Source of the DNA: Candidatus Sericytochromatia bacterium
GTDB taxonomy: Bacteria; Cyanobacteriota; Sericytochromatia; UBA7694
DNA: 32,146 nucleotides
Direction of reading: 5' to 3'
Assembly (NCBI GenBank): GCA_913773825.1
Contig: CAJYHH010000218.1
Span: 1 to 32,146 of the forward strand
Shown here: in pieces, positions 3,315-8,469 of the stretch
How the letters are laid out: every line of letters starts with the position of its first letter
Position numbering within the stretch: position 1 is the first letter of the stretch
Program-made: the position numbers and the translations under genes
The notes under the pieces: model-generated
Database searches by the model: none
The model's input: only the letters and a program-made list of their open reading frames with translations
What the model was told of the DNA's origin: nothing

Positions 3315-4025
3315 ATGAAATTCAGTCCGCCCCTGATTGGCGGGGAGTTAATTCGCCGCTATAAACGCTTTTTGGCTGATGTGCGTTTGCCTGATGGCCA
3401 GGAAATCACTGCCCATTGCCCTAATCCAGGTGCCATGACGGGATGTGCTGAGCCTGGCTGGTCAGTGGGTTTAAGTCATTCAGCAGACCCTAAGCGCAAA
3501 TTGCCCTACACGCTTGAAATGGTCCATAACGGTCAAACCTGGATTGGCGTTAATACCCATCGCGCCAATCAGATTGTGGCTGAAGCTTTAGCACAAGGCC
3601 AGATTTCTGAGTTAGCGGATTATCAGCGGATTCAGGCTGAAGTGCGCTATGGCGAAAAAAGTCGAATTGATTTTTTGCTCAGTGAGCTTCAGGGCAATAC
3701 CCGTGCTCAGCCTGCTTATGTCGAAGTCAAAAGTGTGACGCTCAGATTAGGCAATCGCTGCGCTTTTCCTGATTCGGTTACAACACGTGGGCGTAAACAT
3801 CTTGAAGAACTCACCGCGATGAAAGCAGCCGGCGCACGGGCCGTGATGTTATTTGTTGTGCAGCGCGGTGACGGCGAGATTTTTTGCCCTGCTGCTGAAA
3901 TTGATCCGGCTTATGCTCAGGCACTTAAACAAGCTTCTGAGCAGGGTGTCGAAGTGCTGGTTTACCGCGCCAATCTTGACTTAGAGTACTGGCAACTGGC
4001 AGAGTCCATGCCTTGGAAATTGTAA
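3315..4025 (+). CDS. sfsA: Sugar fermentation stimulation protein SfsA.
   Basis: MKFSPPLIGGELIRRYKRFLADVRLPDGQEITAHCPNPGAMTGC matches the characteristic SfsA N-terminus (RYKRFLADV, HCPNTG-like). The ATG at 3315 is preferred over the TTG at 3261, which lies inside the upstream terminator. Confidence 0.85.
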   Translation: MKFSPPLIGGELIRRYKRFLADVRLPDGQEITAHCPNPGAMTGCAEPGWSVGLSHSADPKRKLPYTLEMVHNGQTWIGVNTHRANQIVAEALAQGQISELADYQRIQAEVRYGEKSRIDFLLSELQGNTRAQPAYVEVKSVTLRLGNRCAFPDSVTTRGRKHLEELTAMKAAGARAVMLFVVQRGDGEIFCPAAEIDPAYAQALKQASEQGVEVLVYRANLDLEYWQLAESMPWKL

Positions 4026-4782: not shown

Positions 4783-5595
4783 CTAGACTTTACGACGGCC
4801 TAGTTTATTAAGCTTGCGCTGGCCTTTAAGTTGTTCACCCAGTTCTTTGAGTTTGGCTTCTGGTAGAGCTAATAAAGCGTCTTCAAGGCGCTGAATGGGA
4901 ATAAAATCAGGCAGGGCGCTGCGCATCAGGGCTAAAGCCCAAAGGGCACGCAGAGGCCGATCCAGATGTAAATTGACCATGCCCGCAATTGAATAAAAGC
5001 CGGCTACTTCGGTGTGATGAAACATCCGATCACCTTCATAATCCTGCAGCTCACAGCGGGATTCAAATAAAGCCGCCACGTCTTTAATCCGGCCTCTAAA
5101 CTGCAGCACTTCAGCCAACGATAAACGGGCAAATAAATAGTCTGGATGAGCATCAAACAGCTCCTGGGCCAGAGTAAACAAGCCTTCGGTATCCTGAAGC
5201 AGGCGCAGGCACTGCAGACGTTGCTGAGTCGGAACGGGATTATCCGGATAGACTTTGGCTAAAGCCTGAGCCGCGCGATCCACTAATTCAATTTGTTCAG
5301 TACGCTCGTCAGATGCTTCTTGTTTGCCGAGTTCTTCAAGCACAATCCAGCGCATCTCGTGAGCGCGAAGATCATCTGGAGCCAATAAGCTGAGATAGTG
5401 ATCCTGCGGACGCAGAGTGGGCTGTTCGCTCCAGCGCATTAAGCGCGGCTGTGGTAAGCCGTCAGGATGGCGCTGTAAAGCTTTAAGCGCCTGTTCAGGT
5501 GAGGTGTTCAAGCCATAGGCTCCCAGCTGATCCTGGCGCAGCAGATTGCGGGCCAGCAGAATATTTTCGTAAGCATCACCCATAGGCTCGGACAT
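4783..5595 (-). CDS. Hypothetical protein, all-helical and possibly TPR-like.
   Basis: 270-aa ORF with normal amino-acid composition. A purine-rich GGAGAA sequence lies upstream of the ATG. I recognise no family. Confidence 0.6.
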   Translation of the reverse strand: MSEPMGDAYENILLARNLLRQDQLGAYGLNTSPEQALKALQRHPDGLPQPRLMRWSEQPTLRPQDHYLSLLAPDDLRAHEMRWIVLEELGKQEASDERTEQIELVDRAAQALAKVYPDNPVPTQQRLQCLRLLQDTEGLFTLAQELFDAHPDYLFARLSLAEVLQFRGRIKDVAALFESRCELQDYEGDRMFHHTEVAGFYSIAGMVNLHLDRPLRALWALALMRSALPDFIPIQRLEDALLALPEAKLKELGEQLKGQRKLNKLGRRKV

Positions 5596-5746
5596 ATATC
5601 TTTATTCTCCTCGTCGTCATCACGGCTTTAGCATGGTAGCATCGGCGATTAGCCGAATGGGAGGTCTGGGTCAGATATCAGGGTTCAAATCTGGTGGCGG
5701 AGCCTGCAGATTGCGCTGCTAAAATAAGCTTGTGAGGTAAAAGATC

Positions 5747-6076
5747 ATGAAAGCTTTGATTATTTTGCTGGCGCTGGTTGTATTAGCAGGCTGTGAAGAA
5801 GTGCCTGCTGCTGCAACAGCGGTCAGTGCCCAGACAAGCCAAACGGCTCAGACCAATCAGACGACTCAAACGAACAGCGAGGGTTGGGTTGAGACGCCTT
5901 GGCAAGACAATGGCTGGCAGGACTCAGGCTCGATCACGCCGATGACAGACTCCCAGACGACTATTAGCCCGAATACAGGCTGGAACGAAGGCTCAAGTTC
6001 TAACGCTTTTCCCAGCTCAGGCTTTAGTGATTCGGTGAGCGGGTCAGAGAGTTCAGATGAAGACTGGCCAAACTAA
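5747..6076 (+). CDS. Small lipoprotein with a Gln/Thr-rich repeat linker.
   Basis: MKALIILLALVVLAGC carries a lipobox LAG|C. A QTSQTAQTNQTTQTN low-complexity tract follows. GAGG lies upstream of the ATG. Confidence 0.7.
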   Translation: MKALIILLALVVLAGCEEVPAAATAVSAQTSQTAQTNQTTQTNSEGWVETPWQDNGWQDSGSITPMTDSQTTISPNTGWNEGSSSNAFPSSGFSDSVSGSESSDEDWPN

Positions 6077-6104
6077 GGCCTTCTTTGCGCGGTAAGGCTT
6101 TTAA
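6075..6104 (+). terminator. Weak terminator-like hairpin after the 5747..6076 gene.
   Basis: aaggcctt (6075-6082) can pair with aaggcttt (6094-6101), including one G-U. A T-run partly overlaps the 3' arm. The signal is marginal. Confidence 0.3.
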
Positions 6105-6110
6105 CTCAAC

Positions 6111-6866
6111 AAAAAATGCCAAAAAATGGCACGAACTTCGGTGTCGTAGCTAAATTACCGCGTCCTGGGCCTCTTGAGGTCTTCGTTCGAGAACGGCTGG
6201 GTACTCCCCTTGCAGGGAACCCGGTGCATCTGTCGTGTTCAGCACGTTTGACGCAGCTTCCGATTCGGACTATTTGCTCCAGGTTGCTCCTTTGCAAATC
6301 CCTCTTCAGGCTTTCTGTCTGGACTTCAGGGGGTTCCCCTCCCGACACCGGTGTAAAAACGGACCTTGCGACCCCTTTTAAACTTTTTCCCTCTTGCCGA
6401 TTCTCACGGCTACAGGGCTTTGCCAGTATCTGGAGTCCGTTGCCGCCGGTCTTGCGACCAGGGCTCGTTCCCCTCTTGTCCTTGACCCCTTCAGGGTTTT
6501 TCACGTTCGCAGCATCGGTTTCTGTTACCAGTCCCTGCCACTCCTGCCTTTTACTTCGTTCCGTTGCCGGTTCGACCGAGGCTTCAGCGGGTTTTGCCAC
6601 TGCGTGCGTGTGTTCGTCCCCGTCTTGCGACGCTTCTGAACCTTTACCCTCCTGGGCGTTCCGCCCTCCAGGGAATTCTCCCGATTCTGAGCCTTCTACC
6701 GCTTCCGGCAGGTTCCCCACTCTCCGTTTTGACGGCTTGTGGGTTTTGCTCTCAGAGTCGGTCGGCATCTGTAAATCTTGCGATCTACCGCCGCCCCTCC
6801 TGGGCTTTTGGCCGGGATTTTCACCCGGTCCGTTTGTGACGCTTCTTCGCTACAACCGAAGTTCGT
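6111..6866 (-). ncRNA. Large structured non-coding RNA candidate of unidentified class (about 736 nt core plus terminator).
   Basis: - Transcription signals: a promoter lies immediately upstream on the minus strand.
- Closing helix: 6866..6856 is perfectly complementary to 6131..6141 (11 bp), 6853..6849 pairs with 6146..6150 (5 bp), and 6842..6838 (GCGUC) pairs with 6164..6160 (GACGC).
- GCAA-capped hairpins at 6771-6788, 6621-6632, 6442-6464, 6361-6375 and 6199-6222.
- Further hairpins at 6812-6828, 6696-6711 and 6585-6602.
- Strand: several helices contain G-U pairs on the minus strand that would be C-A mismatches on the plus strand.
- Terminator: the 3' end carries the hairpin GUGCCA-UUUUU-UGGCAU followed by Us (6132..6111).
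- Coding: the only ORFs here are two mutually antisense frames with Arg/Ser/Pro/Gly/Cys-rich nonsense-like translations. Confidence 0.7.
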
Positions 6867-6873
6867 ATTAACC

Positions 6874-6902
6874 ATAGTATAAGATGCGATTAAGAATGTC
6901 AA
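6874..6902 (-). promoter_or_regulatory. Sigma-70-type promoter for the large ncRNA candidate.
   Basis: The minus strand reads TTGACA (6902..6897), a 17-nt spacer, then TACTAT (6879..6874). An overlapping TATACT has a 15-nt spacer. The predicted start falls a few nt before 6866, exactly where the closing-helix 5' arm begins. Confidence 0.6.
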
Positions 6903-7067
6903 GCCTGAGCTTAAACTTTTGTTTTTTAAGCGTTTCTCTTTGGTCTTTGGCCAGGCTGGGTCGATCGTGATTACGGCTTTACCCAGCTTTAATCACCTTT
7001 TGTTATTCACTTGGTATTCACTAACACGGATTATTTGTTATGACTAAACAAGTCCCCAGGAGGCCGT

Positions 7068-7277
7068 ATGTTACCAAGTTCTGAAGACTTGTTTTTGATT
7101 ACCTATCAACGTGAGGGGCTGATCCGGCGTGATAGCTGGTTTCATCAGCCTGACGAAGCGCAGCGTCATGTGGCTTATCTTCAGAATCTGTTTCCGGAAG
7201 CCCAGGTTCAGCTCCATGTGATTCCTGTTGGCGTAATGGCATCAGCTACGGATTCTTCGCGCTATCTTTCATTCTGA
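7068..7277 (+). CDS. Small hypothetical protein (69 aa).
   Basis: A strong AGGAGG lies 6 nt upstream of the ATG. The stop TGA (7275-7277) is 1 nt before the next ATG, so translation is probably coupled to the downstream lipoprotein gene. Confidence 0.6.
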   Translation: MLPSSEDLFLITYQREGLIRRDSWFHQPDEAQRHVAYLQNLFPEAQVQLHVIPVGVMASATDSSRYLSF

Positions 7278-7278
7278 T

Positions 7279-8469
7279 ATGAAAATGCTAAGTCTGCTGT
7301 CACTGGGTTTATGTTTAGCTCTGACTTTAAATGCCTGTGATCCGCCAGTCTCACCTGCTGTAACGGGTAATCAAACGACTCATCCTAATCAAGCGGTGAC
7401 TCAAACAGGACCTGGCTCTTACCGCTGGACGGTGATGGTGGATAACGCAATGGCTGTTAGCCAGACAAGTACTCAAACAACTGAACGACCAATTTCTAAG
7501 CCGACCGCCAACTGGCGTAAACCCTTAACGCTTCAGCAGCTTCACTCTGTTGAAGTCGCTGGTTTTACCATTTTGGCCGCCCAAATTCAGACGCGTACTC
7601 AACAAAGTTCACAAGTCGCAGCTTATCAACAGGAGCTTCAGGCCCGCTCTGCTGCCTTAAAACAAGCCCGTGAAGCTGCCATTCGCCAAAATGCTGAAGC
7701 TGCTGAAGCCCGCCGTAAACAGGCTGAAGCCCGTTACAATGAGCAAAAAGCCGCACAACAGCAGCGTTATCAAGAGAATCTGGCAAAACAATCGCCCCAA
7801 CCTTCTTCAGCACTTGTCAGTCCGCGTCCGGCGCCTTCTGCAAGCTCTGGATTTAGCACCCAGGCTAAAACGCCAGAGCCCGCCTGGCGTTTGGTTTATC
7901 TGAATAACGGTCAGTTTCAGCTTGAATCTGCGACTGCGCCAACGGGGCCTTTGATTGTAAAAATGCGTTTAGAAGGTTTTACGGAGCCTGTCACCGTCCC
8001 TCTGAGCCGTGAGAGTGCGCCTGTCATTACAGCGGCTCGCAACTTTCAAGGGCAAACCGTTGTGACGGGCAGCTTTAGCCAGATTCCGACACCTAGTCAG
8101 TCTGGCGGCCCGCAAACAGGCGTGTTTACGATTCAACCAGATGCTGAAGGTGGCCAGAACCTTGACTGGACCAGTCCTGACGGGAGTCAGCATCGTTTTG
8201 ATCTGGATACCCTGCCAGCCAGTGGTTTTGCTGACCCAACTCAAGCAGAAGCTTTGCCGGGTGTTGACCAGGATGTGGCCGCTCAGCAATTTGCTGACAT
8301 TGATCAGATGTTTGCTGATCTTGAACGCAGCTTTAGCTCTATGCCAAACGCGTCTGATGGCTGGGCAAACACTGATTGGCCAAGTGACAGCTCTGCATCC
8401 AGTCAGCAAAGTCAAGAAAGCCAGCCGAGTCAAAGTAGCCAAAGCGATGACGGGTTCTTTTCAGACTGA
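7279..8469 (+). CDS. Lipoprotein with a central Ala/Gln/Arg-rich coiled-coil segment and an acidic Ser/Gln-rich tail.
   Basis: MKMLSLLSLGLCLALTLNAC carries a lipobox LNA|C. The segment QQELQARSAALKQAREAAIRQNAEAAEARRKQAEARYNEQKAAQQQ is coiled-coil-like. The C-terminus has SQQSQESQPSQSSQS repeats. Confidence 0.7.
   Translation: MKMLSLLSLGLCLALTLNACDPPVSPAVTGNQTTHPNQAVTQTGPGSYRWTVMVDNAMAVSQTSTQTTERPISKPTANWRKPLTLQQLHSVEVAGFTILAAQIQTRTQQSSQVAAYQQELQARSAALKQAREAAIRQNAEAAEARRKQAEARYNEQKAAQQQRYQENLAKQSPQPSSALVSPRPAPSASSGFSTQAKTPEPAWRLVYLNNGQFQLESATAPTGPLIVKMRLEGFTEPVTVPLSRESAPVITAARNFQGQTVVTGSFSQIPTPSQSGGPQTGVFTIQPDAEGGQNLDWTSPDGSQHRFDLDTLPASGFADPTQAEALPGVDQDVAAQQFADIDQMFADLERSFSSMPNASDGWANTDWPSDSSASSQQSQESQPSQSSQSDDGFFSD

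Follow-up and report, generated by a model that had tools for sequence, protein, structure and literature searches.

The window analyzed here, that is, the whole 32,146-nt stretch of Candidatus Sericytochromatia DNA, raises the question of why one heptamer, UCGCAAG (CTTGCGA on the plus strand), recurs four times within about 420 nt, and of what kind of molecule the hairpins around it belong to. The first-pass annotation, made from the letters alone, had assigned the four copies to GCAA hairpins with arms of 4-9 bp on the minus strand, and had regarded their number as far above chance. The copies proved to be exact (at 6365, 6451, 6624, and 6777), with one further CTTGCGA in the 32-kb window, and all four do form GCAA loops. 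When the 736-nt RNA described below was shuffled 5000 times with its dinucleotide composition preserved, TCGCAAG never exceeded two copies, and only nine shuffles brought some 7-mer with all four letters to four copies.

Our analyses demonstrate that these words are C-GCAA-G caps in one independently transcribed minus-strand noncoding RNA of ~740 nt (6866 to 6131). This RNA represents an undescribed multicopy family which, among the genomes searched, is confined to one family of Candidatus Sericytochromatia, and it constitutes an expressed, selected, and modular RNA structure, the expression being documented by contigs of a ~95% identical relative. Taken as a whole, the identity of the RNA together with a docking mechanism that we infer for its loops is very probably the best explanation of the locus.

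The Heptamers Lie in a Self-Contained Noncoding RNA Gene

The coordinates of the gene, its domains, and its hairpins are collected in table 1. Transcription is predicted to start at ACGAAC, ~7 nt downstream of the promoter and near 6866, and the first 11 nt of the RNA (6856-6866) pair with its last 11 nt (6131-6141) in a terminal stem. The promoter stands at an identical distance ahead of all 22 aligned copies, an AT-rich stretch lies upstream of it in the copies, and most of them have a U run behind the closing helix. A consensus scan also scored hairpin 4 followed by GUUUUUAC (6361-6374) as terminator-like, though the site lies inside the RNA; transcription could terminate prematurely or pause there.

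Table 1. Features of the RNA gene, with positions in the window
Feature	Position	Strand	Description
Promoter	6874-6902	minus	sigma-70-type, TTGACA-17-TACTAT, 10 of 12 matches; AT-rich upstream
Structured RNA body	6131-6866	minus	736 nt; supported by fold, alignment, and RNA-library contigs
Terminator-like element	6106-6132	minus	weak hairpin GUGCCAUUUUUUGGCAU, then U run
Domain 1	6664-6804	minus	closure CCC-AGG-AGGGG (6794-6804) : UCCCU-GGA-GGG (6664-6674); helices 5, 6
Domain 2	6487-6656	minus	closure CCC-AGG-AGGGU (6646-6656) : ACCCU-GAA-GGG (6487-6497)
Domain 3	6322-6480	minus	closure GAC-AAG-AGGGG (6470-6480) : CCCCU-GAA-GUC (6322-6332)
Domain 4	6170-6311	minus	closure GCCU-GAA-GAGG (6301-6311) : CCUC-AAG-AGGC (6170-6180); helices 30, 31
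Hairpin 1	6771-6788	minus	first in domain 1; 7 bp, GCAA loop, one G-U; heptamer 6777-6783
Hairpin 2	6612-6641	minus	first in domain 2; GCAA loop; heptamer 6624-6630
Hairpin 3	6442-6464	minus	first in domain 3; 9 bp, GCAA loop; heptamer 6451-6457
Hairpin 4	6361-6375	minus	within domain 3; 5 bp, two G-U, GCAA loop; heptamer 6365-6371
Hairpin 5	6199-6222	minus	9 bp; GCAA loop in the window copy
Sixth GCAA cap	6561-6570	minus	CCG-GCAA-CGG; overlooked in the first-pass annotation
GUAA-capped hairpin	6522-6531	minus	CUG-GUAA-CAG; helix 20 of the alignment; overlooked in the first-pass annotation

No match was obtained when the window was searched at gathering thresholds against the models of Rfam 15 (4227 models, among them OLE, GOLLD, ROOL, HEARO, raiA, CsrB/Rsm, RNase P, and group I/II introns). 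Extending the search of 5800-7200 to E values of up to 10 returned four chance-level matches, with 11-16 bits against cut-offs of 40-70. Among the papers searched, on noncoding RNAs of Sericytochromatia/Blackallbacteria and on large RNAs in recent surveys, none describes the RNA.

That the region encodes a protein, or that it acts in cis as the leader of the downstream gene, is barely conceivable. Long stop-free frames do run on both strands (6106-6768 on the minus strand, 220 aa; 6116-6871 on the plus strand, 251 aa), but no Pfam family matches either ORF. In every copy the longest open frame runs antisense, with a length that varies between 76 and 245 aa, and 1-2 nt gaps are scattered through the alignment together with paired compensatory changes. 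The RNA contains only 13-19% U, so its complement has few stop codons, which explains the long frames. The unit also possesses its own terminator and is followed by different genes in different paralogues. Beyond the terminator, a small lipoprotein-like ORF (5747-6076) gave sub-threshold Pfam matches to HCMV_UL116 and DUF7537, which look like products of a low-complexity Thr/Gln-rich sequence and not like homology.

Covariation and Fold Energies Identify the Minus Strand as the Transcript

A consensus structure of 161 pairs was built from 22 full-length copies. In this structure, 94.9% of the alignment cells form pairs, compared with 35-49% when the partners are slid by one to three columns, and 97 of the 161 pairs exhibit compensatory changes on both sides; none of 500 column shuffles reached any of the five measures used. 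The earlier proposal that RNA structure is under selection here is thus borne out by homologous sequences. These all come from metagenome-assembled genomes (MAGs) of a single lineage, and the cell counts therefore overstate the number of independent changes. When further helices and pseudoknots were sought by covariation, domains 2 and 3 gained support for their long-range closures. Pairing between the loop at RNA positions 460-464 and the 3' tail (713-718) was considered and discarded, as the tail is already engaged in the terminal stem and the support consisted mostly of G-U pairs.

The strand had been inferred previously from six helices (6771-6788, 6442-6464, 6361-6375, 6199-6222, 6585-6602, and 6696-6711), each said to contain G-U pairs that would turn into mismatches on the opposite strand. 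All six indeed contain one or two G-U pairs when read on the minus strand, and all six are less stable on the plus strand (e.g., -5.6 vs. -0.9 and -7.9 vs. -1.9 kcal/mol). The comparison of both strands proposed for the whole unit came out in the same direction, with -291.0 kcal/mol (z -5.4) for the minus strand and -266.8 kcal/mol (z -4.5) for the plus strand. At the level of the family, the consensus fold energy amounts to -150.4 kcal/mol in the minus-strand sense and -101.0 kcal/mol for the complement, and each of the 22 copies, folded singly, reaches a lower energy on the RNA strand, the mean difference being 55 kcal/mol. Among the paired cells, G-U accounts for 10.4% and A-C for 1.1%, a count that is biased toward the strand used for structure prediction. 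Together, the direction of the promoter and terminator and the fold and strand statistics fix the minus strand as the transcript, as first surmised.

The RNA Consists of Four Repeats of One Domain

The terminal stem encloses four repeats of a domain of ~140-170 nt. The domains are closed by near-identical strands, CCC-ARG-AGGG and CCCU-GRA-GGG, which form two short G:C helices interrupted in each closure by an all-purine 3x3 internal loop (5'-ARG/5'-GRA). Similar purine loops are also found inside domains 1, 2, and 3, making a total of seven per RNA. The helices flanking these loops (6, 7, 13, 21, and 29) are invariant and most other helices covary. At the middle position of the purine loop, A and G alternate across the copies. 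Judged by its sequence, the 3x3 loop is neither a k-turn nor a sarcin-ricin motif.

Compensatory changes were observed in the outer or inner pairs of the closures of domains 1, 2, and 3 (in helix 5 for domain 1), and in the closure of domain 2 all five inner positions are paired in 24 of 24 copies, with two of them covarying. The close similarity of the closing strands also permits other registers; 6487-6497, for instance, could pair with 6470-6480 instead of 6646-6656. Covariation favors the long-range closure of 6487-6497 with 6646-6656, but this support is thin. The eight near-identical closing strands would likewise allow alternative or intermolecular pairing.

The equivalence of the domains is supported by a covariance model (R1) built from domain 1 alone. 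In addition to domain 1 itself (166 bits, 6641-6811), R1 detected domain 3 of the same RNA (28.7 bits, E 1e-8, 6289-6487) and, in a divergent paralogue, matched every one of the four domains. The heptamer sits on the hairpin that comes first behind the 5' closing strand of domain 1 (6777), domain 2 (6624), and domain 3 (6451), and the opening hairpin of domain 4 is likewise capped by GCAA or GUAA in the majority of homologues. As three of the four heptamers cap the equivalent first hairpin of domains 1-3, the repeated word is mainly a trace of domain repetition, combined with selection for GNRA caps.

Conservation of the Tetraloops and Their Putative Docking

The conservation of the loops was counted in 24 copies, nonredundant at 97%. 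Hairpin 1 has C[GCAA]G in 16 of the 24 copies and another GNRA in several, above a covarying stem (helix 8). Hairpin 2, whose core at 6618-6636 places 4 bp under the GCAA loop on the minus strand, carries C[GCAA]G in 15 of 24, and its helix 14 covaries at five of six pairs. Hairpin 4 ends in GNRA in 21 of 24 copies, 14 of which have GAAA. In hairpin 3 the loop varies, with GCAA in six copies, UUCG in four, and UUUA in three, besides GAAA and others. The expectation that homologues maintain these hairpins was therefore met only in part: a GNRA loop with a standard closing pair and a maintained stem is mostly kept at hairpins 1, 2, and 4 (the last being the heptamer at 6365), and is not kept at hairpin 3 (6451). 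Since hairpin 3 exchanges GNRA, UUCG, and other loops, it is merely a stable cap without a sequence-specific role. A fifth GCAA hairpin, also noted before, is present with its 9 bp, and mostly has UGAAA(A)U loops in homologues; the loop at 6561-6570 is GCAA or GUAA in most homologues. The conserved feature is C-GNRA-G and not the heptamer itself, and GNRA is selected at three of the four heptamer sites.

Whether such loops do anything beyond capping helices is a separate matter. The first-pass annotation had read the multiple GNRA loops as usually implying tetraloop-receptor contacts and a compact fold or multimer; this part of it stays an inference, and its two claims on selected structure and on the strand hold. 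They might lack any tertiary role and recur only as stable C-GNRA-G caps multiplied by domain duplication, which would suit the variable loop of hairpin 3 (GCAA, UUCG, GAAA, UUUA, and others), the few copies with UUCG in place of GCAA at hairpins 1 and 2, and the three of four heptamers that duplication explains. We consider this improbable, because hairpins 1, 2, and 4 preserve a GNRA loop in 16-21 of 24 copies despite freely changing stems, and seven of the 12 terminal loops of the window RNA are GNRA.

We propose that the invariant tandem C:G pairs adjoining the purine loops would receive the GYAA loops through A-minor contacts. Such docking would draw the four domains together into one compact particle, which may also self-associate. 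The candidate helical receptors are the invariant CCC:GGG helices beside each purine loop; Jaeger, Michel, and Westhof in 1994 and Costa and Michel in 1995 are said to have found that GYAA loops prefer tandem C:G pairs as receptors. The 11-nt receptor, suggested earlier as something to look for, did not materialize, as CCUAAG occurs in none of the 24 copies and UAUGG once, in one copy. Mutual information assigned no pairing between loops and receptors, the loops being misaligned by MAFFT and the sequences few and related. Both the docking and the compact particle, like any multimer, are inferences without any tertiary contact shown, and we hold them tentatively, at slightly less than an even chance.

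As the main rival, the repeated modules could serve proteins, making the RNA mainly a multivalent protein-binding scaffold or sponge, in which one protein binds at the seven purine-loop modules and the GNRA loops serve just as stable caps. We regard this as unlikely, though well short of negligible, and it is compatible with a compact fold. The sevenfold presence of the module within each RNA and the invariance of its flanking helices speak for such sites, strong promoters, many copies, and high RNA-library depth fit a titrating RNA, and hairpin 3 illustrates that a cap may be purely thermodynamic. On the other hand, no protein gene is common to the neighborhoods of different paralogues, and CsrA, the obvious candidate, fits poorly.

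A CsrA sponge was considered in its own right and rejected. Of 47 genomes of the class, 42 encode CsrA, and the RNA occurs in one family only, so the two do not track each other; GGA was observed 25 times against 23.4 +/- 3.9 in shuffles and is not enriched; and the A/G alternation of the purine loop leaves GGA unconserved there. The new RNA does share with the CsrB/RsmZ sponges repeated short modules, a purine-rich composition, several copies, and strong expression. It differs from them in that its modules are internal loops closing domains and not GGA hairpin loops, that GGA is neither enriched nor conserved in these modules, and that CsrA is class-wide and paired with FliW. In one contig (G000:C571), a fliW-csrA gene pair occupies 3-236 and 236-508, with csrA thus adjoining the gene of its protein antagonist FliW. 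The new RNA is also two to five times longer than CsrB/RsmZ-type RNAs.

Going beyond the docking that we propose, the family could represent a new class of self-assembling RNA particle, in which the four near-identical domain closures and the seven GNRA caps would allow the domains to pack, or to swap strands between molecules, into a defined homo-oligomer or an RNA-protein body. This is speculative and, in our judgment, unlikely. If true, cells of one Sericytochromatia family would hold such assemblies in abundance, with a function new for any RNA.

Expression in Environmental RNA Libraries

Four RNA-labelled sequencing runs were compared with 5500-7500, and the contigs recovered come from a relative ~95% identical to the window. 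Run X20 yielded a contig of 724 nt that covers 6129-6852, run X15 one of 686 nt covering 6163-6848, and run X16 two contigs of 327 and 410 nt, which cover 6130-6456 and 6442-6851. These contigs originate from three studies. Their ends agree to within a few bases, none of them is loose, and the stops near 6129/6130 and 6848-6852 are a weak hint of the transcript ends.

In X15, the contig has a word depth of 531 in a run of 43 million letters and makes up about 0.8% of it. As a genome of at least 4 Mb at that depth would need approximately fifty times the size of the run, the signal derives from RNA and not from carried-over DNA. The RNA-library contigs provide no strand, exact ends, or level for the window locus itself. 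Numerous other runs, a part of them under the labels of unrelated organisms, contain ~27% of the sampled words; they were left out of the comparison and count as evidence of neither habitat nor expression. The gene flanks (5500-6100 and 6907-7500) had no cover in the four runs, which is uninformative since the contigs come from a relative.

Resemblance to Known Structured RNAs

To our knowledge, bacteria have few RNAs that are large and highly structured and whose function is unknown. The new RNA resembles OLE, ROOL, and GOLLD in its length of 600-800 nt, its dense covariation-supported structure, and its many conserved loops, as well as in having no coding capacity and no known biochemical function. 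Recent cryo-EM of OLE, ROOL, and GOLLD revealed unexpected RNA-only assemblies, in which A-minor and loop contacts build compact homo-oligomers (PMC12286853). Unlike these three, the new RNA matches none of their Rfam models, occurs in up to about 12 copies per genome, is built as a fourfold domain repeat, and belongs to one Sericytochromatia family. It can thus be placed in the group of ornate large noncoding RNAs only loosely, since by sequence and structure it matches no member.

A second resemblance concerns group I/II introns and RNase P RNA, which are known for contacts between GNRA tetraloops and helical receptors. The new RNA shares with them several C-GNRA-G caps, mostly GCAA, and invariant tandem C:G pairs that could act as minor-groove receptors, a likeness that remains an untested resemblance. 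It differs in that it matches no intron or RNase P model, lacks an 11-nt receptor, and offers no loop-receptor pairing assignable by covariation.

Several traits make the candidate unusual, namely the clean fourfold repeat, the recurring purine loop with invariant flanks, the many GNRA caps, the up to a dozen strongly promoted copies per genome, and the evidence of high abundance in environmental RNA libraries. Its source is an almost unstudied, uncultured sister lineage of cyanobacteria. The modular build renders the RNA tractable for probing and cryo-EM, and for studying how large RNAs grow by domain duplication.

Distribution, Copy Number, and Genomic Neighborhood

Sericytochromatia are non-photosynthetic relatives of cyanobacteria. 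A search with R1 recovered the RNA in all 13 genomes of one GTDB family of this class and in none of 138 genomes of the phylum outside that family (34 of the same class and 104 further ones). A pattern scan with one genome per species matched only records of Candidatus Sericytochromatia or Blackallbacteria, together with a single contig filed under Bacteroidales. On this 3.7-kb contig (JBPXJX010000140.1), the 5' part of the RNA lies at the end (3533-3752); the study that yielded the contig also produced a Blackallbacteria MAG, and the contig is probably mis-binned. Scanning metagenomes contributed eight further stretches and little added diversity.

Genomes of the family contain roughly 1-12 genes for the RNA, with about one strong domain-1 match in some genera and 10-12 in others. 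The genome of the window itself, a 74%-complete MAG, has at least seven loci that are 67-79% identical to the window copy. Copies were also seen at contig ends in several assemblies (G002:C21:12-524, G008:C18:85-327, G012:C81:26-189, and the ends of G005:C14 and C24). As many copies are located at contig ends and the family breaks short-read assemblies, the copy numbers are lower bounds. Identity reaches 94-98% within paralogue groups across species and 75-85% between groups, which indicates that the multicopy state is old and maintained, without recent bursts. One paralogue lineage is common to two genera.

A multicopy element with complementary ends could also be a MITE-like non-autonomous mobile DNA, whose terminal inverted repeats would account for the end complementarity (11-20 nt) and whose hairpins would be incidental; the many copies at contig ends would agree with this as well. 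It is nevertheless very improbable. The conserved block does not stop at the complementary ends, which are flanked within it by a conserved promoter and a terminator. Their helix shows G-U pairing and compensatory exchange, with pair 3-945 of this terminal helix being GU in 17 copies and GC in five and pair 11-937 being GC in 17 and AU in three. Internal helices covary throughout, the paralogue groups occupy conserved syntenic places across species while being only 75-85% identical to each other, and no transposase is found nearby. What would mark a MITE is thus unmet in the position of the ends, in the RNA-pairing constraint, and in the orthologous loci (target-site duplications were not systematically examined).

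ROOL typically resides in prophages near tRNA islands (PMC12286853). Unlike ROOL and GOLLD, the new RNA is chromosomal; viral contigs, phage records, and plasmids contained no match to it, and tRNA genes lie near only one copy among 50 loci. The one tRNA cluster observed (Ser-Asn-Met-Tyr; L096 3428-3755 / L097 3737-4064) is situated ~2.3 kb from a metagenomic copy. Neighbors are ordinary chromosomal genes that differ by paralogue, such as those for a transpeptidase, GNAT, ankyrin, a methyltransferase, and lipoproteins. When the ORFs around 65 loci were clustered in search of a partner gene, the clusters reflected orthologous synteny only, and the downstream ORFs of three paralogue groups were unrelated.

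Same-strand tandem pairs of the RNA gene are frequent, with the members 0.8-2.7 kb apart (L010/L022 on G006:C73, L037, L043, and L005), and a truncated 5' fragment of 100 nt adjoins full copies in L030 and L040. These tandem pairs and 5' fragments suggest that the family grows by local duplication.
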